From: Chloroflexi bacterium CSP1-4 | GTDB lineage: Bacteria > Chloroflexota > Limnocylindria > Limnocylindrales > CSP1-4 | Direction of reading: 5' to 3' | Length of the DNA stretch: 64,000 nucleotides | Assembly: GCA_001443375.1 (NCBI GenBank) | Contig: LDXM01000006.1 | Location: 18,133 to 82,132, forward strand | In this document: in pieces, positions 23,916 to 49,028 of the stretch | How positions within the stretch are numbered: the stretch's first letter is position 1 | Layout: each line of letters begins with the position of its first letter | Position numbers and translations under genes: made by a program | Notes under the pieces: generated by a model | What the model was told of the DNA's origin: nothing | Database searches by the model: none | The model's input: the letters and a program-made list of their open reading frames with translations, nothing else

Positions 23916-23992
23916 TGGTGGGCGACACTGGACTCGAACCAGTGACCTCTTGCATGTCAAGCAAGTGCTCTAACCAGCTGAGCTAGCCGCCC
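23916..23992 (-). tRNA. tRNA-Val (anticodon GAC), CCA encoded
   Basis: Folds by hand as a cloverleaf: acceptor GGGCGGC/GTCGCCC, D arm GCTC/GAGC, anticodon stem CTTGC/GCAAG with loop TTGACAT, T arm ACTGG/CCAGT with loop TTCGAGT, 3' ACCA. Confidence 0.85.
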
Positions 23993-24194: not shown

Positions 24195-25916
24195 TCACGC
24201 GTCGAAGCCGGCCTCCCGGTAGCGCTCTTCGCCGTCGAGCAGGGTCAGGCGCGGGCGCGCCAAGGCCAGCGCGCCGCCGGGGCGCACCGGCTCGTCGATG
24301 ACAGCCGCGTCGAGCACGACAAGGTCGGCCGGCGAACCGGCCACGAGGCGCCCGCCAAGCTCGTCCCGCGCGGCCCGCCAGGGACCCGAGGTCGCCGCGC
24401 GGAGCGCCCGGTCCAGGGTGATGGACTCCTCGGGCGTCGAGGGCGGGACCCCGTCACCCCACTCGGCGGCCTGCCGCGTCACGGCCATCGCGATGCCCGG
24501 CCAGGGGTCCGCCGGCTCCACGGGCGCGTCGGTGCCGAATGCGAGGAGGCCGCCCGTCGCCTCCAGGCTGGCCAGCGCGAACGCATGGCGCGTGCGGTCG
24601 CCCCATGCCCGCCGCATGATGGTCTCGTCGCTGCGCAGCTGGACCGGCTGCAGCGAAGCCACGACACCGAGCCGCCCGAAGCGGCCGACGTCGTCGGGGT
24701 GGATGAGCTGGGCGTGCTCGATGCGCGGCCGGTATGGCAGGTCGGCCAACCGCTCCGCCGTGACGGCGGCGAAGGCGTCGAGCGTCGTGCGCACGGCGCC
24801 GTCGCCGATGGCGTGGATCATCGTGGCGATGCCCGCCTCCGCAGCCGCGGTCACGCGCTCGATCATCCGCTCGCGCGACTCGAGCAGGCGTCCCCGTGGC
24901 CCGGCCGGGAACGCGCGACCCCCGGGGTCCGCCGCGTAGGGCTCGAGCATCGCCGCGGTGCGCGAGCCGACGCTGCCGTCGCCGAAGAGCTTCAGCCAGC
25001 CGACCCGGAAGCGCGCCGCTGAGAGCCTCGCCTGGGGGTCGCCCGGATCCGCCGGCGCCACGCCCTCGCCGCTGTGCAGACCGGCCGCCACGGCCGTTTC
25101 CAGCTGCTCGTCGCGGACGCCGGCATGGACGCGCAACAACAGGCGACCCGCGGCGGCGAGGCGCCGGTAGACGAGCAGGCCGCCTTCCAGGGTGGGGTCC
25201 GGCGCGGTCGCGCCGGGGTCATGGACGCCGGCGATGCCCAGGGCGGCCAGGCGGTCGGCGTGACGGACGACCGCCTCCGCGAGGCGCTCGGACGTGGGAC
25301 GTGGGACGGCCTCCACGCCGATGCGCGTGGCGTGCTCGAAGAGGACGCCGCTCGGCTGCCCGTCCGCATCCCGCCCCACCATGCCGCCGGGCGGATCCGG
25401 CGTGCCGGCGTCGATGCCGCACGCGGCCAGCGCCGCGGGGCTCATCCAGCGCGCATGGTGGTCGTGGGCCCAGAGGGCGATGGGGCGGCCGGGCGCCACG
25501 GCCTCCAGGGCCCCCGCGGCGGGCAGCCGGCCCCAACGATCGGCCAGCCAGCCGTGGCCGAACAGCCAACCCGCGCGGTCGCCGGCCCGGACCCGTGCCT
25601 CGTGCGCGCGGGCGACGATGGCCAGCGCTTCCTCCATGGTGGTCGTCCCCTCGAGGTCGATCTCATCCGCGGTGACCGCGGCCTCGAGGAAGTGGATGTG
25701 CGCGTCGGTGACCGCGGGCGCCACGACATGCCCGTCCGGGATCCGCAGCCAACGTGTGCCGCGGGTGACGAGCACCCCTACCTCGGCCAGCGGACCGGCG
25801 GCGAGCACCCGCCCCTCCCCGACCGCGAGCGCCTCGACCCAACCCAGGCCGGCCTCGCCGGCGAGGGTCGCGATGCGCCCGACGACCAGCAGGTCGGCGC
25901 GGCTCAGGTAGGTCAT
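24195..25916 (-). CDS. amidohydrolase family protein (amidohydrolase 3 / metal-dependent hydrolase)
   Basis: 573 aa with the HxH metal motif (VTDAHIHFLEA) and amidohydrolase-3 architecture. Confidence 0.7.
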   Translation of the reverse strand: MTYLSRADLLVVGRIATLAGEAGLGWVEALAVGEGRVLAAGPLAEVGVLVTRGTRWLRIPDGHVVAPAVTDAHIHFLEAAVTADEIDLEGTTTMEEALAIVARAHEARVRAGDRAGWLFGHGWLADRWGRLPAAGALEAVAPGRPIALWAHDHHARWMSPAALAACGIDAGTPDPPGGMVGRDADGQPSGVLFEHATRIGVEAVPRPTSERLAEAVVRHADRLAALGIAGVHDPGATAPDPTLEGGLLVYRRLAAAGRLLLRVHAGVRDEQLETAVAAGLHSGEGVAPADPGDPQARLSAARFRVGWLKLFGDGSVGSRTAAMLEPYAADPGGRAFPAGPRGRLLESRERMIERVTAAAEAGIATMIHAIGDGAVRTTLDAFAAVTAERLADLPYRPRIEHAQLIHPDDVGRFGRLGVVASLQPVQLRSDETIMRRAWGDRTRHAFALASLEATGGLLAFGTDAPVEPADPWPGIAMAVTRQAAEWGDGVPPSTPEESITLDRALRAATSGPWRAARDELGGRLVAGSPADLVVLDAAVIDEPVRPGGALALARPRLTLLDGEERYREAGFDA

Positions 25917-26893
25917 CCGGCGAAGAACCGCCGCAGCCCTCCGGGGTCGAGCCCGGCGCCGAGGCCGAGCGCCAGACCGATGCGCGCCTTCGCGCCGCCA
26001 AGCGGGCCGGCCAGGATCGCCCCGGCGCGGACCCAGTGCACCCCGCCGCCGGGGAACGCGTAGGCGGGGCGCGCCTCGCCCGCGGGACAGCGCGTCGTGA
26101 GCACCACGGGGATGCCGGCCGCGATCGCCTCCTTCGCCGCCTCGAGCAGGTCGGGATGCGTGTTGCCCGCGCCGGTGGCGGCCACGACGATGCCGCGCGT
26201 CTCCGACGCCAGCGCCAGCCGCAGCGGTCGCCCGTCCTGCCCGACGAGCGCGGTCACCAGGTCGATCGGCTCGGCCGCCGCCTCGGGGATGGCGGGCAGC
26301 CAGCGTCGGCGCGCCCGACGGCGCACGATCCGCACCCGGCCCCCGAGCACGGATCCGATGGGCCCCTCGTTGAGCGCCTGGAACGTGCCGTAGGCGTCCG
26401 TGTGGGTCTTGGTGGCGTCGTCGCCGGGCAGGATGGAACCGGCCATCACGACGAGGGCACCCTGATGGCGGGCCTCGGGAGCCGCGGCGACGCGCACCGC
26501 GTCGCGCAGGTTGGCCGGTCCGTCGTAGCCCTCCTCCCCGGCGTTGCGCATCGCGCCCGTGACGACCACCGGCTTCGAGCCCGGCACGAGCAGGTCGAGC
26601 GCGAAGACCGTTTCGTCGATCGTGTCGGTGCCCTGTACGACCACCGCTCCGACGACGTCGGGTGGTTCGAGCCGCAGGCGCACGGTCGCGGCGAGGTCCA
26701 GGATCTGCGCGAAGGAGAGGTGCGAGGCCGGCACGAGGCCCCAGTCGACGGCGTCGACGGCGGCGATCTCGGCCAGGCCGTCGGTGCGCGCCAGGATGGC
26801 GGCCCCGTCGAGGACCGGCACGGCGCCGCCCAGGACCGGGTCGACGCGCATCGCGATGGTGCCGCCGGTGAAGATGACCGCGACACGGCTCAT
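25913..26893 (-). CDS. L-asparaginase (type I family)
   Basis: VIFTGGTIAM threonine-active-site motif, GxVVxxGTDT and the full asparaginase/glutaminase fold (326 aa). ATG 26893. The remainder of ORF 25913..27754 overlaps the MFS gene and is rejected. Confidence 0.85.
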   Translation of the reverse strand: MSRVAVIFTGGTIAMRVDPVLGGAVPVLDGAAILARTDGLAEIAAVDAVDWGLVPASHLSFAQILDLAATVRLRLEPPDVVGAVVVQGTDTIDETVFALDLLVPGSKPVVVTGAMRNAGEEGYDGPANLRDAVRVAAAPEARHQGALVVMAGSILPGDDATKTHTDAYGTFQALNEGPIGSVLGGRVRIVRRRARRRWLPAIPEAAAEPIDLVTALVGQDGRPLRLALASETRGIVVAATGAGNTHPDLLEAAKEAIAAGIPVVLTTRCPAGEARPAYAFPGGGVHWVRAGAILAGPLGGAKARIGLALGLGAGLDPGGLRRFFAG

Positions 26894-28470
26894 CGGCGTG
26901 CCTCGCCTTCGGGTGCGTCGGGGCCCGCGCCAGCGGGGGGTCGGCGGCGGGGCCCCGTGGTCACCGTCACCGGATCGGCCGGTTCGAGGTGGCTGGGGAC
27001 GGCGGTGGCGAAGGCCAGCGTGGGCGCGGCGAGGATGGAGCGGAAGCCGGCCACCAGGACCAGGGCGGCGCAGGCGAGGATGACCAACTCCGGACCGATG
27101 AGGTCGGCGATCGGGCCGACGAGGATGATGGGCAGGAAGCTGGCCACGTTGACAAGCATGTTCAGCACGCCGAATACGCGCCCTCGGATCTCCTCGGGCA
27201 GCTCCTCCTGGAGCTGCGTCTGCGCCGGCACGGCCACCAGGGCGTAGGCCACCCCCGAGACGAGCGCCAGCATGACCACGATCCCGAGCAGCGAGACCAG
27301 GCCGCCGATGGTCGTCCCGTCGGTGGTGCCCTTGAGGAACATCGAGATCGGCTGGGCGAGGGCGAGCATGCCCAGCGAGACCGCCAGCGCGACCATGCCG
27401 CCCTCGATGACGCGCCGCCGGGAGAAGTAGCGCCCGTACGCGTTGAGCAACAGGATGCCGATCACCAAGCCGGCCCCGAGCGGCAGCAGCACGACCGCCA
27501 GGCCCTCGTCGGTCAGGCCCAGGGAGTTGCGTGCGAAGCCGGGCCCGAGGACGCCGAGGACGCCGATGAGGGAGGCGCTGATGGCCAGGTAGCTGAGCGA
27601 CCAGAAGATGCTGGGGTTGTCGCGGATGAAGCGCAGGCCCTCGCGCAGCTCGCCGAACGTCGAGGCGACCGCCTGCTCGGCCTCGCCGATGGCGCGCGTG
27701 GCCGAGAGCCTCTCGCCGGGCTGCGGGACTGGCGCCGGTGGCAGGATGAAGCACAGGACGGCCGCCCCGAAGTACAGCCCGGCCACCAGGATGATCAGCG
27801 CGTTCACGCTCGTGACGCCCACCACGAGCGGGCCGAGCAGCGCGAAGCCGATGGCGAACGAGGCCTGCAACGTCAGCGTGAAGAGGCTGTTCGCCGCGAG
27901 CAGCTGGCGCCGGTCCACGAGGACCGGGATCATCGAGGCCTCGGCCGGCGCGAAGAAGACGGTCAGCGTGGAGACCACGATGGTCAGCAGGTAGATGTAG
28001 GCCAGCTGGCTGTCCACGGCCACCATGGCCACGAAGGCGAGGCCACGCGCGACGTTGGTGGCGATGAGCACCTTGCGCCGATCGAGCCGGTCCACGTAGA
28101 CCCCGGCGAGGGCGCTGAAGACGACGGCCGGCACGAGGAAGCTGAGGATCAGCAGGCTGACCGCCGAGTTCGAGTTCGTCCTCGCACTGACCAGCACGGT
28201 CAGGCCGAAGAGGACCATGTTGCCGCCGATCTGGCTGGCGACCTGGGCCAGCCAGAGGGCGAGGAAGCGGCGGTTCCTGAGGACGCCGGCGACCGTGGTA
28301 TCGACCGCCGGGCCCTCGGCCTCCTCCTCGGCCACGGCCGGGCCGCGCAGCTCGACAGCGCGCTCCACCATGGACAGACCGGCCGCCTCTTCGGCGATGA
28401 AAGTGCTCGATGCGTGATCGGGCGCCGGCTCGTCGTCGAGCGCCAGCCGCGTCTGCTCGAGCTCGTTCAT
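26890..28470 (-). CDS. MFS transporter
   Basis: About 12 predicted TM helices, MFS-type layout, acidic N-terminal cytoplasmic region and Pro/Arg-rich C-terminal tail. Confidence 0.75.
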   Translation of the reverse strand: MNELEQTRLALDDEPAPDHASSTFIAEEAAGLSMVERAVELRGPAVAEEEAEGPAVDTTVAGVLRNRRFLALWLAQVASQIGGNMVLFGLTVLVSARTNSNSAVSLLILSFLVPAVVFSALAGVYVDRLDRRKVLIATNVARGLAFVAMVAVDSQLAYIYLLTIVVSTLTVFFAPAEASMIPVLVDRRQLLAANSLFTLTLQASFAIGFALLGPLVVGVTSVNALIILVAGLYFGAAVLCFILPPAPVPQPGERLSATRAIGEAEQAVASTFGELREGLRFIRDNPSIFWSLSYLAISASLIGVLGVLGPGFARNSLGLTDEGLAVVLLPLGAGLVIGILLLNAYGRYFSRRRVIEGGMVALAVSLGMLALAQPISMFLKGTTDGTTIGGLVSLLGIVVMLALVSGVAYALVAVPAQTQLQEELPEEIRGRVFGVLNMLVNVASFLPIILVGPIADLIGPELVILACAALVLVAGFRSILAAPTLAFATAVPSHLEPADPVTVTTGPRRRPPAGAGPDAPEGEARR

Positions 28471-28703
28471 GCGGTCGATCCGGGCTCGGGTCCGCGTTCG
28501 ACGTACCCGCGGAAGCGCCGCTCCAGGTCGCCGCGTGCGAGCAGGATACGGCGGCGGCAGCCGTCGCAGACGAGGCCGATGTCCGCGCCCAGGCGCACCA
28601 CCGACCAGCGGCGCTCGCCGCAGGGGTGGGGTCGGGCCAGCTCGATGCGGTCCCCCAGGCGGAGTTCGAGCACCGGCCGCGGCGTGGCCATGGTCCTGCT
28701 CAA
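28467..28703 (-). CDS. DUF951 family small protein
   Basis: 78 aa. GDRIELARPHPCG...WSVVRLGADIGLVCDGCRRRILLAR matches the DUF951 pattern. Overlaps both neighbours. Confidence 0.6.
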   Translation of the reverse strand: MSRTMATPRPVLELRLGDRIELARPHPCGERRWSVVRLGADIGLVCDGCRRRILLARGDLERRFRGYVERGPEPGSTA

Positions 28704-30052
28704 TGCTCCGTCGCCCCGGTGAACGTGAAGGCGCTCAGGCGCAGTGCCGGCACGACCACGGGCCCGAGGTATCCGCGCAGGAGCCGTCGCTCGCGGGATA
28801 CCGCCTCCACGCCGGCGAGCGCCGCCAGGTAGCTCTGCGTGAAGCGCAGGTTCCGCACCGGCCCCACGACCCGCCCGTCCTCGACCAGAAAGAGCCCGTC
28901 GCGCGTCATGCCGGTGATGATGGCCAGCTTCGGGTGCACGGTGTTCGTATAGTGGAAGCGCGTCACCAGCAGGCCCCGATCGAGGCCGGCAACGAGGTCA
29001 TCGCGCGGCGTCTCGCCGGCGGCCATGAGCTGGTTGAGCGGGAAGGGGCCCCAGGGGTTCGGCGCGGGCAGGCCGTGGCCCGTCGAGCGACGGCCGGCGC
29101 GGGCGGCCGTCTGTGCGTCGTAGACGACGTCGCGGCAGACACCGCGCTCGATGAGCGTCACGCGCTCCTTGGCGACCCCCTCGTAGTCGAACGAGGCAGG
29201 CATGCCGGCTGGGTCCCTCGCGTCGTCCACGATCGTCACCAACTCGGAGCCGACGACCCGCCCCGCTTCGTGGAACGAGCGCCCCTCCTGGACGGCGAGG
29301 GCGGAGAAGCCGATATAGCCGAGCGTATCGAGCACGTCGGCCACGGCGTACTCCTCGAGCACGACGGGGTAATCTCCGGGCTCCACGGCCACGGCGCCGC
29401 GAGAGTGGCGCGCCTTCGAGGCCGCCTCGCGTCCCACGGCAGCGGCATCGATCGTCGTCGCGTCGACCGCGTCCGCCTCCGCATAGCCAGCCTCGCCGTC
29501 CGGCCCCATGCACACCGTGATGAGCTGCGCCCAGGTCCGCTCCTCAAAGGCCCGCACGCCCTTCGAGTTGACGATCCCGACCCGCTCCAGGTGCGTGGCG
29601 AGGGAGCCGTAGGCGAGGACACCCGCCGCGTCGGCCGCGGCGATGACCTCGCGCGCGGCCGCGGCGCGCATCTCCGGCGACGTCGACGCGGTGCCGGGGC
29701 TGTAGGCGCCAGCCACGGGCGTGATGGGGCCCGGCTCGGGCAGCTCGACGGCCTCCTCCAGCTCTGGCTGGAGGCGCGCCGTGCGCGCCGCGCTGGCGGC
29801 CAGCCGCCGCAGCGACGCCTCGTCGAGGCGGTTGGTGGCCGCGCAGCCGACCCGCCGGCCATCGACGAAGCGAAGGCTGAGGCGCCGGTCGAGCGTGGCC
29901 ACGTTCTGATGGATCTCGCTGTTGGCGAAACGCGTCAGCGCCGACTCGTCGGCGTCGACGAGCACCTCGGCCTGGCTCGCGCCCTCGGCAGCGGCGAAGC
30001 CGAGCAGCCGATCCGCGAGCACGAGCATCTCCTCGCCCGCCGCGATCACCAT
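28700..30052 (-). CDS. pmbA: TldE/PmbA family metalloprotease component
   Basis: 450 aa TldD/PmbA fold lacking the HExxxH motif, consistent with PmbA/TldE. Overlaps tldD by 7 nt. Confidence 0.8.
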   Translation of the reverse strand: MVIAAGEEMLVLADRLLGFAAAEGASQAEVLVDADESALTRFANSEIHQNVATLDRRLSLRFVDGRRVGCAATNRLDEASLRRLAASAARTARLQPELEEAVELPEPGPITPVAGAYSPGTASTSPEMRAAAAREVIAAADAAGVLAYGSLATHLERVGIVNSKGVRAFEERTWAQLITVCMGPDGEAGYAEADAVDATTIDAAAVGREAASKARHSRGAVAVEPGDYPVVLEEYAVADVLDTLGYIGFSALAVQEGRSFHEAGRVVGSELVTIVDDARDPAGMPASFDYEGVAKERVTLIERGVCRDVVYDAQTAARAGRRSTGHGLPAPNPWGPFPLNQLMAAGETPRDDLVAGLDRGLLVTRFHYTNTVHPKLAIITGMTRDGLFLVEDGRVVGPVRNLRFTQSYLAALAGVEAVSRERRLLRGYLGPVVVPALRLSAFTFTGATEH

Positions 30053-31485
30053 CTGCCAACCCCGACCTGGACGTCGCGGAAGCGCGCGCCGCTCGTGCCG
30101 TGGCCGACGTGGCCGACCTGCCCCGGCTCGCCCTTGCCACAGTTCGGCGTGCCGATCATGACGTAGCTGCGGGCGTCGGCGACCGCGTCACAGGAGCGCC
30201 AGAACTCGTAGGTGATGCCCGTGTAGGTGGGGTTCTTGAAGAGCCGACCGAGCTTGCCGCCTTTGACCTCGTAGGCCACCTCCGTCGCGAACTGGAAGTT
30301 CAGGCGCCGGTCGTCGATGCTCCAGGAGCGGTTGGAGGCCAGGTAGAGGCCGTCGTCGGTGTCGGCCACGATGTCGTCGAGGCTCAGGCCCTCGCGGGGC
30401 AGGAGGTTGACGTTCGTCATGCGGATGAGCGGGATGCGGTCCCAGCCATCGGCGCGCATGGTGCCCCCGCTGCGCCGGCCGATGCGCGGCGCCGTCTCCC
30501 GCGAGCTGAGATAGCCGCTGAAGATGCCGTCCTGGACGAGCGGCACGCGCTGCGCGGCAACGCCCTCATCGTCCCAGCCGAAGGTGCCCATGCCGCCCGG
30601 CGCCGTCGCGTCGGCGACGATGGTCACGAGGTCCGAGCCGTAGCGGAAGCCGCTCTCGAGCTTGTCCGTGGTCAGGAAGCTCGTCCCCGCGTACGAGGCC
30701 TCGGTGCCGAAGACGCGGTCCAGCTCAGTGGGGTGGCCGCAGCTCTCGTGGACCTGCAGGTAGAGCTGTGACGGGTCGAGGATGATCGTGCGCCGGCCGG
30801 GCGGGCACTGCGGGGCCGAGAGGAGCGCCACCGCCTCGGGCGCGATGCGTTCGGCGTTGCCGGCGAGGTCGAGGCCGCGCACCCATTCGTAGCCCGCCGC
30901 CTGGCCCGAATCGGCGTAGCTGCGGCGCTGGAGCTCGTCGCCCGACACGGCATTGGCCTCGATGTTGGCCACCACGTGGGTGATCTCCTGGTCGGTCTCC
31001 GAGCCGTCGCTGGCGGCGAACGACTTCCACTCCCGCTGCGCGGAGTAGTTGGCCTCGGCGAAGGCGATGCCCGGAGTGCGCGTCATGGCGGCCTCGGCGG
31101 CCATCAGGTCGGCCACCTTCTCCTCGACGGGCACGGCGAAGGGGTCGACCTCGTACGGCGTGCGGTACGAGCCGTGCGCGGGAGGCCGGTCGTCCAGGAC
31201 GACGGGCCGGCGCAGGGTGGTCGCCGAGGCACGTGCGATGCGCACCGCATCGCCGGCCACGCGGTCGGCCTCGGTCATCGTCAGCCCGCTCGAGGCGGCG
31301 AAGCCCCACGCGCCGTCCACCAGCACGCGCACCCCGAAGCCCTCGCTCTCGCCGAAGGCCACGGCCTCGATACGGCCGGACTTCACGGAGATCGATTCCT
31401 CGGCACGGCGCACCACGCGCACGTCGGCATACGTGGCGCCCCGCTGGACCGCCGTGTCCAGGGCGCGCTGGCTGAGGTCTCGCAC
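30046..31485 (-). CDS. tldD: TldD family metalloprotease
   Basis: 479 aa with the HESCGH (HExxxH) zinc motif and C-terminal GxC/Gly-rich region. Confidence 0.85.
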   Translation of the reverse strand: MRDLSQRALDTAVQRGATYADVRVVRRAEESISVKSGRIEAVAFGESEGFGVRVLVDGAWGFAASSGLTMTEADRVAGDAVRIARASATTLRRPVVLDDRPPAHGSYRTPYEVDPFAVPVEEKVADLMAAEAAMTRTPGIAFAEANYSAQREWKSFAASDGSETDQEITHVVANIEANAVSGDELQRRSYADSGQAAGYEWVRGLDLAGNAERIAPEAVALLSAPQCPPGRRTIILDPSQLYLQVHESCGHPTELDRVFGTEASYAGTSFLTTDKLESGFRYGSDLVTIVADATAPGGMGTFGWDDEGVAAQRVPLVQDGIFSGYLSSRETAPRIGRRSGGTMRADGWDRIPLIRMTNVNLLPREGLSLDDIVADTDDGLYLASNRSWSIDDRRLNFQFATEVAYEVKGGKLGRLFKNPTYTGITYEFWRSCDAVADARSYVMIGTPNCGKGEPGQVGHVGHGTSGARFRDVQVGVGRW

Positions 31486-31508
31486 GACGCCGGAGGATAG
31501 CAGAGGCG

Positions 31509-32186
31509 TCAGATGCGGGGCTTCGCGTCCTGCGGGCGGAGGTCGCGCGTCGTGGCCGGGAGGACCAGCGGGGTCTCGCGCGGCATGACCTCGATGACCA
31601 CATCGGGCTGGGCCACGGCGATCCGCCCGATGATGCCGCCGGCACGGCTCAGGACGGCCTGCAGCGCCGAGGGCGAGCCGATGGCCTCGATCCGGATCTC
31701 CGGCCCGAGGGGCGCGCCGACCAGGACCAGCGCGCCGGGCTCGCCCCCGACCACGGAGCCGGGCACCACGCGGACATCCCCGATGGCGATCGCCTCAGCG
31801 CCGGCCAAGCGGAGCTCGTCCACCAGGTCGTTGACGGCATCGGCCGTGATCGGGCCGTCGATGACGACGACCACGCCCCTCCCCTGCACCGGCTCGAGCC
31901 CCGACCAGCGCCGCAGGCGCAGCAGATCTGCCTCCAGCTGTCCGACGTTGGTCCGGCCGCTGGCCGTCGCGTCGCTCATGTCGCGCAACTGCGCCTCCAG
32001 CTGGGCCACTTCGTCGCGCAGCTGGCCGTTGCCCAGGTTCAGGCTCGCGATGAGCGTCGTGAGGTCCTGCGTGCTGAGCTGCCCGAGGCCGCCGGCCGAA
32101 CCCTGGGCGCGCAGCTGGAGGACCAACAGCAGACCCATGATGAAGGCCACCACGGTCATGGCGGCCCGGGCGCGGGGCGCCTTCAC
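31509..32186 (-). CDS. DUF881 domain protein (YlxW/YlxX-like)
   Basis: N-terminal TM helix, coiled-coil segment and C-terminal DUF881-like domain. GTG 32186 overlaps the upstream stop (alternative ATG 32159). The upstream 106 aa of ORF 31509..32504 are rejected. Confidence 0.6.
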   Translation of the reverse strand: MKAPRARAAMTVVAFIMGLLLVLQLRAQGSAGGLGQLSTQDLTTLIASLNLGNGQLRDEVAQLEAQLRDMSDATASGRTNVGQLEADLLRLRRWSGLEPVQGRGVVVVIDGPITADAVNDLVDELRLAGAEAIAIGDVRVVPGSVVGGEPGALVLVGAPLGPEIRIEAIGSPSALQAVLSRAGGIIGRIAVAQPDVVIEVMPRETPLVLPATTRDLRPQDAKPRI

Positions 32187-32944
32187 GGCGCGCTCGACGG
32201 GCTGGGCACCGGGCGGGCCTGCACGAGGTTGATGACACCCGAGTAGGCCGCCACGACCACGTCGCCCGCCGGCACGAAGCCGAGCTGCAGGCCGTACCCC
32301 TGGACCCGGGTCCGGGTGAAGTCGATGAAGCCCGATGCGGTCGTCAGCCGGTCGTAGAGCTCCGGCGGCCCGATGACCGAGATGTCGTAGGGCGGCTGGA
32401 GGTAGGAGCTGTTGACGAGGACCGATGAGCCGATGTCGGTGAGCGCCGTGCTCGCCACGATGCGCTCGCTGTTCACGCTGATGGCCTCCGCACCGGCCAG
32501 CCACAGCTCGGTGAGGACGTCGCGCAGGTCGTTGGCCGAGACGAGGTAGTCGGCCGCCGCGACATCGGGTGGCACCGGCTGGGTCGAATCGTCGAGACGG
32601 ACGACGAGACCGGGACCCTCGAGCTCCACGAGCCCAGCTACCAGGCGCGCGTCGCGCAACTCGTCGTTCAGGCGGCGCACGCGCTCGTCGTTGCCCTCCG
32701 CCGAGGCCTCGGCGTCCCCGATCTGTGCCCGCAACTCGAGGATGCGCGCCTCAAGCTGCTCCTGCGCCGCGCGCAGCTCGTTGGCGGTCTCGAGGAGCGG
32801 CGGGCGCTCCGAACTGCTGTAGCGGATGCGCGGTCCTTCCGTGCCGAGCTGGATGGCGATGAGGAAACCGAGCGCGAGCAGGGCGACGCCGAGGGTCACC
32901 TGCCAGCTCGGGATGCGTCGGAGGCGCGCCAGCAGCCCGCTCAC
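32183..32944 (-). CDS. DUF881 domain protein (second paralogue)
   Basis: Same architecture as the downstream paralogue: TM helix, coiled coil, DUF881 core. 4-nt overlaps with both neighbours. Confidence 0.6.
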   Translation of the reverse strand: MSGLLARLRRIPSWQVTLGVALLALGFLIAIQLGTEGPRIRYSSSERPPLLETANELRAAQEQLEARILELRAQIGDAEASAEGNDERVRRLNDELRDARLVAGLVELEGPGLVVRLDDSTQPVPPDVAAADYLVSANDLRDVLTELWLAGAEAISVNSERIVASTALTDIGSSVLVNSSYLQPPYDISVIGPPELYDRLTTASGFIDFTRTRVQGYGLQLGFVPAGDVVVAAYSGVINLVQARPVPSPSSAP

Positions 32945-34338
32945 GGTCCGTCCTCCGGCCCGGCCGGCGGCGCCGCTGCGGACGACGCGGGACGGCCACG
33001 GCGCACGATGACGACGATGACGCCGGCCGCGATCACGAAGAGGGCCGCGACGATGACGCCGACCAGGAACCCGGTCTGGGCCGCGCCGCCGCCGTCGGGC
33101 CCGGGCGTGGCCGACGGCGTGGGGCCGCCGCTGCCCTCGGTCGGAGCGGGCGTGGCCGAACCGCCCCCGATCGCCCAGTCCGCTGGCGTCGGCCCGGGCG
33201 CCGGTGGCTGCGGGCCGTACGCCTTCGGCTCACGCGCACCGATGTCCTCGAGCCATGCCTGCCCGAAGGCCTCGATGCCGGCGCCGGTGGCGGCGCGGAA
33301 CGCTTCGTCGTCGGTGACGCCGTCCGCGTAGCTCCGGATGAGGTCCACGAGCTTCGCCTCGCTGTATCTCCGGATGAAGAAGTCGACCGCCGCGGTCCCC
33401 TCGGCGTAGCCGAGGTAGAACAGCTCCTCGCGCGCCTGCGGGAAGCCGGATGCCAGCGCATCGAGCGGCAGGAGCGTGCCGCGCTCGATCGCGTTGGCGA
33501 CGCGCTGCCGATCGCCGGAGCCGAAGCCTTCCGAGAGGTACGTCGCGAGGCCCTCGTTCAGCCAGTGGGGCGGATCATGGAAGACGTTCTGCGTGGCCGT
33601 GTCGAAGACGAGGTGGGTCAGCTCGTGCGTGATGAGGACGGGCACCCAGTCGCTGCCGATCTGGTCGGGCGCCACGGCCCCGAAGAGCGTCCGGATCTCG
33701 GCGATCGCGCGGCCGGCGACGAACTCCTTCGTGTTCGGCCCGATCGCGGTCTGCAGCAGCGTCGGGTCGCCGTAGACGTAGAAGTCGATCGGTTCGGTCT
33801 CCGTCACGCCGAGCAGAGCGGAGGCCGAGGCGACGGCTTCCTCGCCGAAGCGCAGGGCGCGCCGGGCGAAGGCTTCGCTGCCTTCGTACCAGTGGATGCG
33901 CACGACGTCACCCTCGAGCGTCTTCCACGTGACGCGATCGTCCTCGATGCGGACGGTCGCCCGCGGGCCGTCGACCACACCGTCGGGGGTGGTGACGCGG
34001 AAGCGGTAGTCGATGACGCCGTTGGGCAGGTAGAAGCCGCCATCGATGAAGTCGACCCGGTACGCGGAGCCGCCCGTCGTGGCCTGGCCGACCTCGCGCG
34101 CCTGGACCTCCTGGACGAACCACGTCTCGGTGCCGGTGAGGCGCGTCATCAACTCGACGCGGGCCGGCGGGGTCGCGGAACCGAACCCCTGTGACCAGGT
34201 GATCGCCTGGCCGAAGCGGACCTCGACCGACGGCGCCTCGAAGGTGACGCTCGTGGCGGCCCCTGCCACCGGCCCGGCGACCGATGCCCCGAACACCAGC
34301 CCCAGCACGGCGACCAGAAGTGCGAAGCGGCGCGTCAT
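32941..34338 (-). CDS. secreted zinc metallopeptidase-like protein (HExxH) with C-terminal membrane anchor
   Basis: Signal peptide, HELTH...NEGLATY zinc-binding arrangement, Pro/Gly/Thr-rich linker and a C-terminal TM helix with basic tail. Family not assignable by eye. Confidence 0.55.
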   Translation of the reverse strand: MTRRFALLVAVLGLVFGASVAGPVAGAATSVTFEAPSVEVRFGQAITWSQGFGSATPPARVELMTRLTGTETWFVQEVQAREVGQATTGGSAYRVDFIDGGFYLPNGVIDYRFRVTTPDGVVDGPRATVRIEDDRVTWKTLEGDVVRIHWYEGSEAFARRALRFGEEAVASASALLGVTETEPIDFYVYGDPTLLQTAIGPNTKEFVAGRAIAEIRTLFGAVAPDQIGSDWVPVLITHELTHLVFDTATQNVFHDPPHWLNEGLATYLSEGFGSGDRQRVANAIERGTLLPLDALASGFPQAREELFYLGYAEGTAAVDFFIRRYSEAKLVDLIRSYADGVTDDEAFRAATGAGIEAFGQAWLEDIGAREPKAYGPQPPAPGPTPADWAIGGGSATPAPTEGSGGPTPSATPGPDGGGAAQTGFLVGVIVAALFVIAAGVIVVIVRRGRPASSAAAPPAGPEDGP

Positions 34339-36008
34339 CGGTCGGCCCAGTCCAGGCCCGCGAAACGGAGGATGCCGGTGCCCGACACCGCGGTGCCCTC
34401 GAGGCCCGTACGGGCCAGCGCCCAGCCGGCGCGGTAGGCCACCGCGATGGCCGGCGCCTCGTCGCGGACGATCGCCTGGGCGTCAGCGTAGCGCGCCTGC
34501 TGCTCGGCGGGGTTACCCGTGGCAGCGGCCGCATCGAGCGCGGCGTCGTAGCGCGGCTCGCTCCAGCGACCGTAGTTGTTGGTGCTCCCGGTTTCGAGGA
34601 GGAGGCCCAGGAAGTCCTGCGGGGCGGGGTAGTCGGCGACCCAGGACATCGCCCAGAAGGCCGGCCGATCGGGCTCCTCGAGCCGCGCGAAGTACTCGGC
34701 GGACGGCATCAGCTCGAGGCGCAGTTGGACGCCGAGCACGCGAGCGATCTCGGCGGCGATGGGCTCGTCCCAGCTGTAGCCCTGCGTGACGAGTGCGACC
34801 TCGGGGAAGCCCGCTCCACCTGGATAGCCCGCCTCCGCAAGGGCGGCACGGGCGGCCTGGGGGTCGTACGAGGGCGTGAAGTCCGTGTCGCTGCGACCGG
34901 GTATGCCGGGTGGCAGCAGGGACGTGGCGCCGATGGCGTCGGGCGTCGTCAACTCGACGAGCCGGTGCCAGTCGATCGCCTGGGCGAAGGCCCGCCGGAC
35001 GCGGGCATCGTCGAAGGGCGGCTTCGTGGTGTCGAAGCCGTAGTAGTCGACGGTCAGCTCGGTGCGCTCCAGCAGCTGCGGCCCGAGGTCGGCGTCGTAG
35101 CGCACCCACCCGGCGTCGAAGGCGTCCAGCCGGCTGTAGTCGATGTCGCCCGCCTCGAAGGCCTCGACGATCGACGTCTCGCCGAGGTCGAAGACGATCT
35201 CGAGCACCTTCAGCGCAGGCGCGCCGGCCCAGTAGCGTGGGTTCGCCTCCAGCCGGATCGCCGTGGTGGTCTGGCTGGTCGGGACGTAGGCACCGGAGAC
35301 GACGAGACCGAGCGGCAGGAACGGACCCTGGCCCTGAAGGGCCACGATGGCGGCGGCGGGCAGCACGGCCAGCGACGGAGAGGCGGCCACCGAAGGGAAG
35401 TACGCGGCCGGGCGGCGGAAATCGACCACGACGCGATCGCCATCGGCCCGGATGCCCACGCCGTCAGGGCCGCTGCGCCCGGCAAGGCGCTCGTTGGCAC
35501 CCACGACGTCGGAGAGGAGCGAGGCCAGCGGTGAGGGCCGCGCCGGGTCGATCAGGCGCAGCCAGCTCGCGACCACGTCCGCGCTGGTGATCGGCGTGCC
35601 GGCCGAGTCGGTGATGCCCGGCCGCAGCGCGAACACGACGCGCCGGCCTCCGTCCTCTACCGACCAGGTCGCGGCGAGGGCGGGCTGCACGGCGCCTTGC
35701 GCGTCCACCGCGGTCAGCGACTCGAAGACCTGGGCGATCGTGATCGCCGAGCCGTAGTCGCTCTGCATGGCGGGGTCCCAGTCGGCGGGTGCAAAGCCGA
35801 CGATGCGGGCATCGACGTCACCACGGGGGGCCGCCGCGGCCGACTCGCCGCCCGTCGTGCTGGACGGCACGGCCGGTGCGGCCGGTGCTGACCCGTACCA
35901 CGTGGCGGCAGTGACGACCAGCGCGACGACCAGGAGCAGTGCCACCCCCGCGAGGCCCCGCCGGGCGCGTGGCTCGAGCGGCTCGTCGACATCGGCGGAG
36001 GACAGCAT
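34335..36008 (-). CDS. ABC-type substrate-binding protein, family 5 (peptide/nickel type), membrane-anchored
   Basis: SBP_bac_5 architecture over about 500 aa. N-terminal TM anchor instead of a lipobox. Start at ATG 36008. No permease or ATPase genes adjacent. Confidence 0.7.
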   Translation of the reverse strand: MLSSADVDEPLEPRARRGLAGVALLLVVALVVTAATWYGSAPAAPAVPSSTTGGESAAAAPRGDVDARIVGFAPADWDPAMQSDYGSAITIAQVFESLTAVDAQGAVQPALAATWSVEDGGRRVVFALRPGITDSAGTPITSADVVASWLRLIDPARPSPLASLLSDVVGANERLAGRSGPDGVGIRADGDRVVVDFRRPAAYFPSVAASPSLAVLPAAAIVALQGQGPFLPLGLVVSGAYVPTSQTTTAIRLEANPRYWAGAPALKVLEIVFDLGETSIVEAFEAGDIDYSRLDAFDAGWVRYDADLGPQLLERTELTVDYYGFDTTKPPFDDARVRRAFAQAIDWHRLVELTTPDAIGATSLLPPGIPGRSDTDFTPSYDPQAARAALAEAGYPGGAGFPEVALVTQGYSWDEPIAAEIARVLGVQLRLELMPSAEYFARLEEPDRPAFWAMSWVADYPAPQDFLGLLLETGSTNNYGRWSEPRYDAALDAAAATGNPAEQQARYADAQAIVRDEAPAIAVAYRAGWALARTGLEGTAVSGTGILRFAGLDWADR

Positions 36009-36045
36009 GGGATGCGAGTCTAGCCGGACTGGCGCCGGCCGCACC

Positions 36046-36384
36046 TCAGGCCGGGGGTTCGGGCCGGTCGCGCAGGAGCAGCAGGAGCATGACCACTGGC
36101 GTCCGCGCCGTGAGCGCGTGACGCATCCCGGCCGGCATGTGGATCCACGTGCCGGGGCCGGCCTCGCGCCGGTCATCGCCGAGCAGCACCTCGGCCTCTC
36201 CCTCGAGGATGTGGATGACCGCCGACATCGCCGCGGTGTGCTCGGACAGCTCCTGTCCGGCGTCGAAGCCGAAGATGACCACCTTCAGCCGGCCGTCGCT
36301 GAACACCGTCCGGCTGAGGATGCCGTCCTTGGGGATCTCCACCTCGGCCCGCAGATCGGCGAGGAACGCGTAAGGAGCCGTCAT
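36046..36384 (-). CDS. cupin domain protein
   Basis: 112 aa with cupin_2 motifs (G...H.H..E...VLLG, P.G..H). AAGGAG RBS. ATGA overlap with the upstream gene. Confidence 0.7.
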   Translation of the reverse strand: MTAPYAFLADLRAEVEIPKDGILSRTVFSDGRLKVVIFGFDAGQELSEHTAAMSAVIHILEGEAEVLLGDDRREAGPGTWIHMPAGMRHALTARTPVVMLLLLLRDRPEPPA

Positions 36385-37472
36385 GGCGCTGCTGAGACCC
36401 ACTCGATCGCCCCGCGCCGGCAGCGTGTGACGCACAGGCCGCAGCGCGTGCACAGCTGCTCGTCGATGACCGCCAGCTTGTCCACGACCGTGATGGCCTC
36501 GTAGGGGCACGACACCGCGCACAGGTCGCAACCGTTGCACGGTGCCTCCGAGACGACGGGCTTCCCGGCCGACCAAGCGGCGGGCTGATCGGCCATCGCC
36601 AGACCGCGCAGCTCCGCCGCCGTCGCATAGCCGTGCTCGTCGAGCCAGGCGTCCAGCTCGTGCGCGATCTTCCCGAAGACGCCCGGCCCACGCAGCATCG
36701 CGGCCGTGCAGACCTGGACTGCGGATGCGCCGGCCATGAGCATCTCGACGGCGTCGATCCCGTGACTGACGCCCCCGACGCCCATGATCGGCACGCGGAC
36801 GGCGCGAGCGATGTCGCGGACGCAGCGGAGCGCGAGTGGCTTCAACGCCGGCCCGGAGAGCCAGCCGTAGCCATCGGAGCCGCCGAGGTACGGCAGCCGG
36901 GTTTCGGGGTCGATGGCCAGCACCGGCCCGAACGAGTTGATGGCCACGATCCCGTCGGCTCCGGCGGCCTCGGCCTGCTCGGCGGCCCGGACCATCTCGC
37001 GGCCGAGCGGACTCAGCTTGACGAAGACGGGAACGTCGACCGCCGCCTTCGCCGCCCGGATCGCGGCGACCATCGGGCCCGCGTCCTCGCCGATGTAGTG
37101 CGTCGAGAGCTCGAGCGCATCGGCGAAGGGCCGGACCCGGGGCGCGAGCCAGGCGATCTCGTCCGGGCTGTAGCCCAGGCTGACGATGAGCGGCAGGCCG
37201 GTCTGGCGCGCCAGCGCGTACTCGTGCTCGAGCCACTGCTCCGGCGGCAACTCCGACCAGAGCTCGGTGTTGACCATGCCATGCGGGATCTCCGCGATGT
37301 TCGGCGTGGGCGGCTCGGCGGCTCGGGTCGAGATCGTCTTGGACACCAGCCCACCGGCGCCGCCCTCGGCGCAGCGGACCATCGCCCGGCCGTCGCGAAC
37401 GGGCGGCCCCGCCGCGGGCAGGATCGGGTTGGAGAAGCGGATGCCCGCGACCTCGACGCTCAGGTCCGCCAT
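36381..37472 (-). CDS. dihydroorotate/dihydropyrimidine dehydrogenase family protein (PreA-like TIM barrel with C-terminal 2x[4Fe-4S] ferredoxin domain)
   Basis: DHOD/DPD-B-like barrel (IAINSFGP, MGVGGV) followed by two CxxCxxCxxxCP clusters. ATG 37472 preceded by GGGGAGGG. Confidence 0.75.
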   Translation of the reverse strand: MADLSVEVAGIRFSNPILPAAGPPVRDGRAMVRCAEGGAGGLVSKTISTRAAEPPTPNIAEIPHGMVNTELWSELPPEQWLEHEYALARQTGLPLIVSLGYSPDEIAWLAPRVRPFADALELSTHYIGEDAGPMVAAIRAAKAAVDVPVFVKLSPLGREMVRAAEQAEAAGADGIVAINSFGPVLAIDPETRLPYLGGSDGYGWLSGPALKPLALRCVRDIARAVRVPIMGVGGVSHGIDAVEMLMAGASAVQVCTAAMLRGPGVFGKIAHELDAWLDEHGYATAAELRGLAMADQPAAWSAGKPVVSEAPCNGCDLCAVSCPYEAITVVDKLAVIDEQLCTRCGLCVTRCRRGAIEWVSAAP

Positions 37473-41478: not shown

Positions 41479-41651
41479 CGAGATATCCTTCGCGCCATGG
41501 GCGGGCCATGTGGCCCTTTCGGGGGCGCTCGTCCCGTCCGAATCTAAACACAGCCGACGGTCGTGACCCATGCTGTTGGTCCCGGCCTCGGTCCCTTTGG
41601 TCCCGATCGCCACCGGATGATACCGGCGCCGACCCGGGGCGGGAGCCGACG

Positions 41652-48671: not shown

Positions 48672-49028
48672 ATGGAAGCCGTCGAACAGCCGCAACGAGT
48701 CCCACCGTTGTCGCGGACGGCGATGCACGTCCTCATCGCGATCGGCCCGGAGGAGCGGCACGGGTACGCGATCATGCGCGAGATCGTGCGGATGACCGAG
48801 GGGGCGACGCGGCTCGGACCCGGCGGCGTCTACACCACGATCAGGCGACTCCTGGACGACGGGCTGATCGAGGAGTGCGACGAGCGTCCGGACCCCGAGC
48901 TGGACGATCAGCGCCGACGCTACTACCGGCTCACTGGGACCGGGCGGGCCGTGGCGGGGGCGGAGGTCCGTCGCCTCGAGAGCCTCGTCCGCGCGGCACG
49001 CCCGTGGGCGCTCGAGGCCGTCGAGTGA
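48672..49028 (+). CDS. PadR family transcriptional regulator
   Basis: Winged HTH PadR signature (HGYAIMREI...GVYTTIRRLLDDGLIE...RRRYYRLT). Confidence 0.85.
   Translation: MEAVEQPQRVPPLSRTAMHVLIAIGPEERHGYAIMREIVRMTEGATRLGPGGVYTTIRRLLDDGLIEECDERPDPELDDQRRRYYRLTGTGRAVAGAEVRRLESLVRAARPWALEAVE

Follow-up and report, generated by a model that had tools for sequence, protein, structure and literature searches.

What might a peptide-type substrate-binding protein do in an operon that it shares with a secreted peptidase and two DUF881 proteins? The question is raised by a locus of the Chloroflexota bacterium CSP1-4 (class Limnocylindria), which we analyzed within a window of 64 kb, that is, the whole stretch of DNA under study. 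Four genes form its core:

34335..36008, minus strand: family-5 substrate-binding protein (SBP; OppA/MppA-like), 557 aa, PF00496
32941..34338, minus strand: predicted extracytoplasmic zinc metallopeptidase, 465 aa, PF13485
32183..32944, minus strand: DUF881 paralogue a, 253 aa, PF05949
31509..32186, minus strand: DUF881 paralogue b, 225 aa, PF05949

The checked gene models place these genes consecutively, each overlapping the next: the SBP stop and the peptidase start share an ATGA at 34335-34338, the peptidase stop and the DUF881a start a GTGA at 32941-32944, and the DUF881a stop and the DUF881b start a GTGA at 32183-32186. Gene calls made independently on identical metagenome contigs yield the same 557-, 465-, 253-, and 225-aa products, bearing out the 4-nt/GTGA overlaps of a preliminary description of this DNA. 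SBP, peptidase, DUF881a, and DUF881b are one translationally coupled unit. According to hydropathy, all four products are membrane-tethered with extracytoplasmic domains, and the earlier picture of a tightly coupled set of such proteins thus stands on both overlaps and hydropathy. Terminator-like sites were absent from the strand carrying the block; two promoter-like elements flank it:

36017..36022, minus strand: P1, -10-like hexamer TAGACT, 8 nt upstream of the SBP ATG; putative leaderless promoter
31494..31502, minus strand: P2, extended -10-like TGCTATCCT, 8 nt upstream of the GTG of the next gene (tldD); putative internal leaderless promoter

A TA[T/G/C]ACT hexamer stands 6 to 9 nt before the SBP start in 33 of 70 related loci, compared to 0.5% of internal start codons, and the window has only 4 such sites preceding long ORFs, P1 among them. 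Since the conserved TAGACT stands 8 nt upstream of it, the SBP start at ATG 36008 is supported. Similarly, in 44/66 loci the gene next after DUF881b, whichever it may be, has TGnTAnnnT 6 to 9 nt ahead of its start. P1 and P2 bracket exactly the four genes, with P2 as the 3′ boundary of the unit. Their fixed distance from the start codon suggests that both are leaderless promoters, and the two elements constitute sequence evidence suggesting leaderless transcription units in Limnocylindria.

The linkage proved conserved, as the preliminary description had proposed to check. Among 80 Limnocylindria species representatives, all loci being from this one class and peptidase identity ranging from 43 to 91%, the SBP gene lies directly upstream of the peptidase gene in 71/71 assessable loci, and the DUF881 pair follows in 58/68. 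Median gaps at the three successive junctions are -4, -4, and -1; overlaps are kept even at 43 to 60% protein identity, and translational coupling between the peptidase and the DUF881 pair is seen in 62/66 loci. The flanks vary by clade, with cupin/PreA-like genes at the CSP1-4 locus and a divergent cysS in another lineage (L037), and SBP-peptidase adjacency is nevertheless present in all three clades despite different upstream flanks; the block has therefore been kept while its surroundings change. Part of the linkage reflects shared ancestry, because synteny past the block is fairly conserved within the largest clade: many clade-C loci likewise keep the order of the flanking genes, namely, cysS and those for a pyridine-nucleotide oxidoreductase and a SpoU methylase.

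The SBP matches SBP_bac_5 (PF00496; cluster C peptide-binding proteins) over profile positions 2-367 of 368 (5e-58, 197.4 bits; gathering cutoff, 32.4). A single N-terminal hydrophobic segment at residues 18-36, following RARR and free of Cys, confirms the TM anchor first described. That the anchor replaces a lipobox is not general, since a lipobox is present in no fewer than 16 of the 77 orthologues; the TM anchor is a lineage-specific trait and just a membrane tether. The closest PDB sequences are those of MppA (3.6e-36) and OppA (1e-32), with PrgZ also among the matches. The segment SWVADYPAP aligns with SWVGDYNEP of MppA, its Asp corresponding to MppA D417/OppA D419, which salt-bridges the α-ammonium group of the ligand (PMC3173086), and 76/77 orthologues have the motif W.[AGS]D[YF]. 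The position of the ligand-carboxylate Arg (OppA R413/MppA R411) aligns with Ala, for which reason the length and type of ligand cannot be inferred; an Arg lies one residue off the MppA-specific R402 position, where the alignment is of low confidence. These features point to an OppA/MppA-type peptide binder that retains the Asp clamping a free peptide N terminus.

As the preliminary description had noted, the SBP has no permease or ATPase partner nearby. Pfam, annotation, and a motif scan revealed no ABC permease or ATPase genes in the 64-kb window, including the two BPD_transp_1 permeases and one or two ATPases that would adjoin the SBP in an Opp/Dpp-type importer operon; when the related loci were scanned for Walker A/LSGGQ motifs, only 4/80 had an ABC-type ATPase within ∼10 kb, never adjacent, leaving 76/80 with none. 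The earlier conclusion that the module is not a transporter is unsupported. Escherichia coli MppA is likewise an SBP without permease genes of its own and delivers murein tripeptide to OppBCDF (PMC3173086). The Limnocylindria SBP shares PF00496 and the conserved α-amino Asp with MppA as it does with OppA and DppA. Different from MppA and OppA, it is membrane-anchored in a monoderm-type Chloroflexota and its gene is translationally coupled to ecto-peptidase and DUF881 genes.

Profile-HMM searching assigned the peptidase, whose family had been left to such a check, to Peptidase_MA_2 (PF13485; 4e-31, 108.7 bits; gathering cutoff, 32.4). The protein comprises a signal peptide, a β N-domain, a thermolysin-like catalytic domain, a Pro-rich linker, and a C-terminal TM segment (residues 426-444, followed by RRGR); the signal-like N terminus, the HELTH site, and the C-terminal anchor of the preliminary description were all recovered by hydropathy and alignment. 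Its motifs are GTKEF, HELTH (238-242), WLNEGLA, and YAEG, and E205, H238, E239, H242, E262, and Y311 do not vary among 18 homologues of 43 to 66% identity. In the family profile, GPGT[KR]E[FN] aligns with high posterior probability on AP-GAMEN of ERAP2, albeit not as a literal GxMEN, and HELTH..WLNEGLA aligns on HExxH..WLNEGFA of the same enzyme. The spacing from the His to the Glu zinc ligand is x19, compared to x18 in M1 enzymes; Y311, in the context YAE[SG]xSAVDF, is a putative counterpart of the catalytic Tyr of the M1 motif YEKG/YDKG.

Pfam Peptidase_M1 (PF01433) gave no match at an E value of ≤0.01, and a profile search of the PDB reached M1 enzymes only at about 2e-3. The AF2 model (pLDDT 82) shows strands at 31-150 and an α/β catalytic domain at 155-365, and ranks 1 to 50 of a Foldseek search of the PDB are all M1 aminopeptidases (E values of 1.3e-9 to 4e-7, probability 1.0), including the two-domain Deinococcus radiodurans enzyme (PDB 6a8z); the TM-scores are low, 0.33-0.39, partly from ∼100 disordered residues in the model. 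The modeled structure thus indicates a putative aminopeptidase with a two-domain M1-aminopeptidase-like fold and conserved, probably catalytic motifs, and the zinc motif noted earlier, invariant in the 18 homologues, falls within this fold. M1 enzymes such as PepN, LTA4H, ERAP/IRAP, and 6a8z have the same β N-domain and thermolysin-like domain, with motifs that are probably equivalent. In contrast to them, the Limnocylindria enzyme is classed as Peptidase_MA_2, has GT[KR]E[FN] in place of GAMEN along with the x19 spacing, and lacks a C-terminal ERAP1_C/armadillo domain; unlike the cytoplasmic members, it is predicted to be secreted and C-terminally TM-anchored.

Both DUF881 proteins match PF05949 (DUF881a, 6e-31 and 107.6 bits; DUF881b, 4e-21 and 75.8 bits; gathering cutoff, 25). 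Each has one N-terminal TM segment by hydropathy, followed in the AF2 model of DUF881a by a long helix (47-102) and an extracytoplasmic α/β DUF881 domain, consistent with the architecture first proposed. DUF881b is built alike, the two being 28% identical (BLASTP, 1e-12), and its start is supported by orthologue N termini and conserved ATGA/GTGA overlaps. The only significant fold match of DUF881a is PDB 3gmg (Rv1825; 2e-7 by sequence), a protein that is to our knowledge uncharacterized. In YlxW/YlxX (UPF0749) of Bacillota and in Rv1823/Rv1825/Rv0012, one likewise finds paired bitopic paralogues with an N-terminal TM segment, a long helix, and an extracytoplasmic DUF881 domain, and the paired arrangement in Limnocylindria, as in Mycobacterium tuberculosis, suggests a heterodimer. 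Different from ylxW/ylxX, the Limnocylindria genes lie outside the dcw cluster: a position downstream of ftsQ/divIB in a division/wall cluster was not found, the neighbors being SBP, peptidase, and TldD genes. Nor is there a small gene between the two, because they overlap, here as in 58 related loci, which upholds the reported absence of the small basic protein. Since the organism belongs to the Chloroflexota and is no actinobacterium, the dcw context of Firmicute and actinobacterial DUF881 genes is not directly transferable.

Downstream of DUF881b follow six further co-directional, tightly packed genes and a tRNA gene:

30046..31485, minus strand: TldD-type metalloprotease, cytoplasmic; PmbA_TldD domains 1-3, NCBIfam TldD
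28700..30052, minus strand: PmbA/TldE-type partner, overlapping TldD by 7 nt
28467..28691, minus strand: DUF951 small Cys-rich protein, 74 aa; PF06107 on identical contigs
26890..28470, minus strand: MFS transporter (MFS_1/MFS_3 by Pfam, DHA3-like)
25913..26893, minus strand: asparaginase-family protein without signal peptide; 4-nt overlaps on both sides
24195..25916, minus strand: Amidohydro_3 (YtcJ-like) amidohydrolase, cytoplasmic; last gene of the co-directional block
23916-23992: tRNA-Val, after the amidohydrolase gene

TldD is the first gene of this downstream unit in the CSP1-4 lineage and present in only 9/54 assessable loci. The DUF951 gene, whose product shows no signal peptide by hydropathy, overlaps the MFS start by ATGA and occurs in 50/54 loci, and the asparaginase-family gene is conserved in two other lineages (L037 and L028). 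The MFS gene lies downstream of SBP-peptidase in all 54 assessable loci. In one subclade (L028-type loci), which has neither DUF881, DUF951, nor TldD/PmbA, peptidase and MFS genes share 4 nt, and the asparaginase gene comes next, again with a 4-nt overlap; the DUF881 pair appears to have been lost once in Limnocylindria. The constant MFS gene and its direct coupling to the peptidase in this subclade, as well as the peptide Asp kept in 76/77 SBPs, speak against excluding transport. The MFS protein matches TIGR00900 at 1e-49, below the cutoff of that model, and is nearest to DHA3-type efflux pumps (Mef, Tap, and EntS), so that it may export rather than import.

Taken together, we tentatively favor, at somewhat short of an even chance, the view that the four-gene block encodes a surface module, conserved throughout the class, that captures and trims peptides. 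Transcription would start at the leaderless P1 just before the SBP gene. Oligopeptides, whether from the environment or from the cell's own wall turnover, would be bound at the membrane surface by the SBP and shortened from the N terminus by the tethered aminopeptidase. Their products might be taken up via the linked MFS, via an Opp/Dpp-type permease encoded elsewhere on which the SBP docks, or both, and the P2-driven genes (TldD/PmbA in the CSP1-4 lineage, asparaginase, and YtcJ-like amidohydrolase) would complete cytoplasmic degradation and release nitrogen. The DUF881 pair, probably a heterodimer as predicted for its M. tuberculosis homologues, may serve as a noncatalytic membrane scaffold or positioning factor, the least supported step. 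Limnocylindraceae lack several amino-acid pathways, and a reliance on amino acids or peptides from outside has been proposed for them (PMC13212565).

Known systems offer partial parallels. In Bacillus subtilis dppABCDE (with the D-aminopeptidase DppA) and E. coli ddpXABCDF, a family-5 SBP gene is likewise cotranscribed with a metallopeptidase gene for peptide or wall-peptide scavenging; their peptidases are cytoplasmic and they include ABC permease/ATPase genes, whereas the Limnocylindria enzyme acts outside the cytoplasm and has no linked transporter other than the MFS. Lactic-acid bacteria, with anchored PrtP, the lipoprotein OppA, and intracellular PepN, illustrate nitrogen acquisition by a monoderm cell in which a hydrolase tethered at the surface works together with a tethered peptide-binding protein. 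There, PrtP is a serine endoprotease and not co-operonic with OppA, and the M1 enzyme PepN is intracellular. Against capture and trimming weigh, besides the efflux-like MFS, the Ala at the ligand-carboxylate position, the low TM-scores, and the share of the linkage owed to common ancestry, the following points: we know of no SBP-dependent MFS transporter, and a nutritional role leaves unexplained the translational coupling of DUF881 to the peptidase, the Firmicute homologues being found at the division site.

It is this coupling, in 62/66 loci, that lends some weight to a second, unlikely explanation, namely, a module for cell-wall peptide turnover or division. The DUF881 heterodimer would place it where the wall grows or the septum forms. 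Stem peptides that amidases set free, with a free L-Ala N terminus, would be bound by the MppA-like SBP, trimmed by the aminopeptidase, and recycled, and the downstream asparaginase and amidohydrolase would handle amidated or D-amino-acid products. B. subtilis dpp-ykf and E. coli mppA/mpaA tie family-5 SBPs to wall-peptide-recycling peptidases. The best solved relative of the SBP is the murein-tripeptide binder MppA, and the Asp for the N-terminal amine is conserved. YlxW/YlxX localize to midcell in Clostridioides difficile (bioRxiv 10.1101/2025.06.04.657922), and the M. tuberculosis DUF881 proteins show co-essentiality and predicted heterodimers (bioRxiv 10.1101/2022.09.27.509804). However, the margin of MppA over OppA is small, MppA being an enterobacterial offshoot of OppA (PMC3173086), and of the MppA-specific positions, Arg-411 is Ala and the equivalent of Arg-402 uncertain. 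Moreover, the block and related loci lack wall-synthesis, amidase, or division genes, and the core works without DUF881, since one subclade dropped the pair and retained SBP-peptidase-MFS. Envelope remodeling, as suggested in the preliminary description, may still apply, its sole basis being the DUF881 pair.

Could the genes be mere neighbors by descent, with a stable gene order and overlaps that reflect genome compaction only? All 80 loci come from one class, the flanks are syntenic too in many clade-C loci, and 4-nt overlaps are ordinary for operons of a 73% GC genome, adjacent gene pairs throughout the window commonly overlapping likewise. We nevertheless consider this improbable, given SBP-peptidase adjacency in three clades with differing upstream flanks, overlaps retained at such low identity, a peptidase that became coupled straight to the MFS where the genes between them were deleted, one compartment common to all four products, and P1/P2 enclosing just these four genes.

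Quite improbable, taken jointly, are two nonexclusive readings in which the SBP partners with the MFS instead of an ABC permease, as an MFS system that depends on a binding protein and whose substrate is sized by the tethered aminopeptidase, and/or the DUF881 heterodimer acts on the extracytoplasmic hydrolase as its membrane scaffold or regulator. The co-occurrence in 54/54 loci, the lack of ABC genes nearby, and the peptidase-MFS coupling once intervening genes are lost are compatible with the former, and the DUF881-peptidase coupling with the latter. A peptide-signal module, in which an exported product (possibly via the DHA3-like MFS) is matured outside by the peptidase and the SBP signals or reimports it, would fit the missing ABC genes, the exporter-like MFS, and family-5 SBPs of pheromone systems such as PrgZ, but is highly improbable. 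Neither the window block nor annotated relatives yielded a chemoreceptor, a histidine kinase, an RRNPP-type regulator, or a precursor peptide, and DUF951 lacks a signal peptide. Specific maturation is hardly a task for an M1-like exopeptidase whose motif is of the GxxEN type, and the downstream enzymes are catabolic. With neither kinase, regulator, nor precursor in the block, the sensing role first proposed finds no support either.

The four-gene operon is real and well conserved, if made of components already known. Limnocylindria are abundant Chloroflexota of soil, sediment, and freshwater for which we know of no cultured model, and part of them are auxotrophic for several amino acids (PMC13212565). 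If peptide capture and trimming holds true, the operon would be a concrete genetic source of the cell-associated "leucine aminopeptidase" activity in these habitats and a handle on nitrogen acquisition by Limnocylindria. Placing a DUF881 (YlxW/YlxX) pair outside the dcw context also makes the peptidase a testable partner, and if the pair does act as a scaffold, this would provide the first mechanistic context for the widespread "division-site" DUF881 family.

Four open reading frames with strong third-position GC bias in a window of 73% GC make up the block considered here; two further neighbouring features are listed with them.

34335-36008, minus strand: family-5 substrate-binding protein (SBP), 557 aa; Pfam SBP_bac_5, 5e-58
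32941-34338, minus strand: peptidase, 465 aa; Pfam Peptidase_MA_2, 4e-31
32183-32944, minus strand: DUF881a, 253 aa; Pfam DUF881, 6e-31
31509-32186, minus strand: DUF881b, 225 aa; Pfam DUF881, 4e-21
28467-28691, minus strand: DUF951 protein, 74 aa, with HPCG...CDGC
36046-41613, minus strand: co-directional, tightly overlapping set directly upstream of the block (molybdoenzyme, amidohydrolase, DHO_dh/4Fe-4S protein, cupin)

ORFs, junctions, Pfam matches and metagenome gene calls confirm the coordinates and overlaps given for the four genes in the preliminary description: the stop/start overlaps are, in gene order, ATGA, GTGA and GTGA (junctions CGATGACG, CCGTGAGC and CCGTGAAG), and independent gene calls on identical contigs from several metagenomes yield the same 557-, 465-, 253- and 225-aa products. 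By themselves, the 4-nt overlaps are unremarkable in this window, since neighbouring gene pairs in the run have them too. No known RNA was found in the block (Rfam). By hydropathy, the SBP, which contains no Cys, has a single hydrophobic stretch at its N-terminal end, following RARR; the peptidase begins with a signal-like segment and carries a C-terminal transmembrane segment (TM) with RRGR behind it; and each DUF881 protein has one N-terminal TM. The earlier proposal of an extracytoplasmic module is supported.

When GTDB was scanned with one genome for each species, peptidase relatives turned up in 494 species. Linkage was counted in the best 80 of these 494 loci (peptidase identity 43-91%), against which the window's proteins were run by tblastn and from which ORFs were extracted by tblastn anchoring. 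Essentially all 80 are from Limnocylindria MAGs, and the named homologues of the peptidase belong to Limnocylindrales or Limnocylindria. The peptidase itself is 100% identical to a protein of 'Chloroflexi bacterium CSP1-4'; with these matches an actinobacterial origin, to which the 73% GC and DUF881 had pointed, was rejected. The related loci L014, L015, L038, L047 and L075 have a Limnocylindria-type operon on contigs whose MAGs carry the label Dormiibacterota, Sulfotelmatobacter, Patescibacteria, Sulfomarinibacteraceae or Methylomirabilota; mis-binning of these contigs is probable.

Among the best 80 of the 494 loci, the SBP gene lies directly upstream of the peptidase wherever the contig allows (71/71), and the DUF881 pair directly downstream in 58 of 68; median intergenic distances in related loci are -4 (SBP-peptidase), -4 (peptidase-DUF881a) and -1 (DUF881a-DUF881b). 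The window's downstream unit runs TldD-PmbA-DUF951-MFS-asparaginase-YtcJ-like amidohydrolase, with junctions of -7, +8, -4, -4 and -4, and ends with a tRNA-Val. In the same best 80 loci, an MFS transporter is found downstream in 54 of 54 and DUF951 in 50 of 54; TldD/PmbA (9/54) is limited to the clade of the window and to some members of another. Upstream flanks vary by clade, from the cupin and PreA-like dehydrogenase of the window to a divergent cysS in locus L037. The window's upstream set, with its xanthine-dehydrogenase-like molybdoenzyme and PreA-like DHO_dh/4Fe-4S protein, probably forms an operon for purine or pyrimidine catabolism; it recurs only in the closest relative, L009, among the best 80 of 494 loci and therefore lies outside the conserved block. 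The four-gene block persists while its surroundings change, with the caveat that wider synteny is also kept within the largest clade.

Between 23.5 and 42.5 kb of the window, a sigma-70 consensus scan gave no promoter, and no terminator-like site was found on the minus strand, which makes read-through into the downstream unit likely. Promoter-like elements emerged only from comparison of orthologous intergenic regions. In aligned upstream regions, a TA[T/G/C]ACT hexamer stands 6-9 nt before the SBP start codon in 33 of 70 related loci. A second element, cTcTGnTA(c/t)ccT, has the extended -10 form. In 44 of 66 loci it precedes, by 6-9 nt, the gene that follows DUF881b, be this TldD (some clades) or DUF951 (other clades), and many loci have the stop codon of DUF881b within it. 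The window's copies are:

36017-36022, minus strand: P1, TAGACT-8 nt-ATG, before the SBP start at 36008
31494-31502, minus strand: P2, TGCTATCCT-8 nt-GTG, before the TldD start at 31485

Such a hexamer precedes just 0.5% of internal start codons, and P1 and P2 are two of only four such sites before long coding ORFs in the 64-kb window. No Shine-Dalgarno sequence is present at starts with a TAnnnT hexamer 6-9 nt upstream, and these hexamers are kept at orthologous positions across Limnocylindria. From these alignments we infer that two leaderless promoters, P1 and P2, bracket exactly the four genes; the pattern suggests that leaderless transcription units are used in the class. The other two of the four sites are at 48672 and 51253 on the plus strand. 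An inverted repeat enclosing P2 (GACGCC-13 nt-GGCGTC, 31486-31511) occurs in this genome only and, not being conserved in relatives, was set aside. Separately, a stretch ccctaacg...N...cgttatc[g/a]cag[c/t]agaggcc is conserved between cysS and the SBP gene, ~40-80 nt upstream of the latter, in several loci of clade C (L018, L033, L046, L049, L056, L061 and L080), and could be a cysS leader or a regulatory element on the other strand.

Unlike M1 aminopeptidases, the peptidase has the sequence profile of Peptidase_MA_2 and not of Pfam Peptidase_M1. Searched against the PDB, its family profile reached only M1 aminopeptidases (ERAP2, E ~2e-3), aligning GPGT[KR]E[FN] with the exopeptidase motif GAMEN, and HELTH...WLNEGLA with HExxH...WLNEGFA. 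The best 50 Foldseek PDB matches of its AF2 model (mean pLDDT 82, core >90) are all M1 enzymes (E 1e-9 to 4e-7, probability 1.0), including IRAP, LTA4H, ERAP1/2, APN, tricorn factor F3 and a two-domain D. radiodurans M1 enzyme; TM-scores are only 0.33-0.39, in part because the model is disordered over ~100 residues. Eighteen homologues (43-66% identity) share a signal peptide, beta-rich N-domain, catalytic domain, Pro-rich linker, TM and basic tail, and their invariant residues include E205, H238, E239, H242, E262 and Y311. We conclude from profile and model that the peptidase is a predicted membrane-tethered enzyme on the outside of the cell that would work like an M1 aminopeptidase. A Tat signal (TRRF) was rejected, as it is not conserved in orthologues.

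The best solved relatives of the SBP are MppA (3.6e-36) and OppA (~1e-32), and its WVADY aligns on WVGDY of MppA. MppA D417, or OppA D419, makes a salt bridge with its ligand's alpha-ammonium group and is required for transport (PMC3173086); the equivalent Asp is present in 76 of 77 SBP orthologues. The Arg-411/413 position (MppA/OppA) aligns to Ala. At least 16 of the 77 orthologues have a lipobox in place of the Cys-less anchor, so the anchor type is just a tether. As the preliminary description had noted, there is no permease or ATPase partner nearby: no ABC permease or ATPase was found in the 64-kb window or adjoining the block in relatives, a candidate ABC run at 55.5-58.9 kb being ETF alpha, ETF beta and acyl-CoA dehydrogenase. 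Its further step, that the module is not a transporter, is unsupported, since an SBP of this kind can work with a permease whose genes lie elsewhere, as MppA shows (PMC3173086).

Tentatively, and with a little less than even confidence, we read the block as a surface module that would bind peptides and shorten them from the N-terminus, the trimmed peptides feeding uptake and then cytoplasmic degradation, with DUF881 as a possible accessory scaffold. All parts of the block are from known families, and their arrangement resembles SBP-plus-peptidase peptide-utilisation loci. In the literature searched, we found no description of such an arrangement with an extracytoplasmic M1-like enzyme or with an MFS transporter in place of ABC genes, nor of a DUF881 pair in an SBP-peptidase context.

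The main rival reading, which we regard as rather unlikely, takes the peptides from the cell's own wall; DUF881 would place the module where the cell grows or divides. In Bacillota, the genes for YlxW and YlxX follow ftsQ, and the proteins are found at midcell in C. difficile (bioRxiv 10.1101/2025.06.04.657922); unlike them, the DUF881 pair here has neither dcw neighbours nor the small basic protein gene sbp. The two DUF881 paralogues of the window are 28% identical to each other. In its AF2 model (pLDDT 70), DUF881a has a TM, a long helix spanning 47-102 and an alpha/beta domain, and Rv1825, itself uncharacterised, is the only structure matched significantly; ferredoxin-like/dimeric alpha-beta-barrel matches were weaker (E >= 0.01) and set aside. 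Rv1823-Rv1825 and Rv0012-Rv1823 of M. tuberculosis are among the top-scoring predicted heterodimers of a co-essentiality study (bioRxiv 10.1101/2022.09.27.509804); the label 'Rv0012 (PonA1)' in one paper was disregarded as an apparent error. The literature searched held almost nothing functional on DUF881, UPF0749, Rv0012 or Peptidase_MA_2.

The MFS protein is nearest to DHA3-type efflux proteins, below family cutoffs. Its gene is translationally coupled by ATGA to that of DUF951, a possible zinc ribbon, in the window and most relatives; to our knowledge, no function of the pair has been described. One subclade (L023, L028, L039, L052 and L076; e.g. L028 9827-12714) is without the DUF881 pair, DUF951 and TldD/PmbA. 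There the peptidase is also missing its C-terminal TM, and the end of its gene runs 4 nt into the beginning of the MFS gene; asparaginase comes next, again with a 4-nt overlap. All DUF881-less loci group within a single clade of a rough NJ tree of peptidases, which agrees with DUF881 having been lost once, and the arrangement looks like one deletion that re-coupled peptidase to transporter. This coupling argues that SBP-peptidase and MFS-asparaginase-amidohydrolase act in one pathway. Pure neighbourhood by descent, with no shared function, is improbable: it fits poorly with the coupling that has been kept, with the compartment that the products share and with the re-coupling after deletion.

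A role in signal processing or sensing, the peptide-sensing function first proposed, finds no regulator or precursor gene and is very improbable. The reading as a surface module for peptide binding and trimming fits the dependence on external amino acids or peptides that has been proposed for Limnocylindraceae (PMC13212565).
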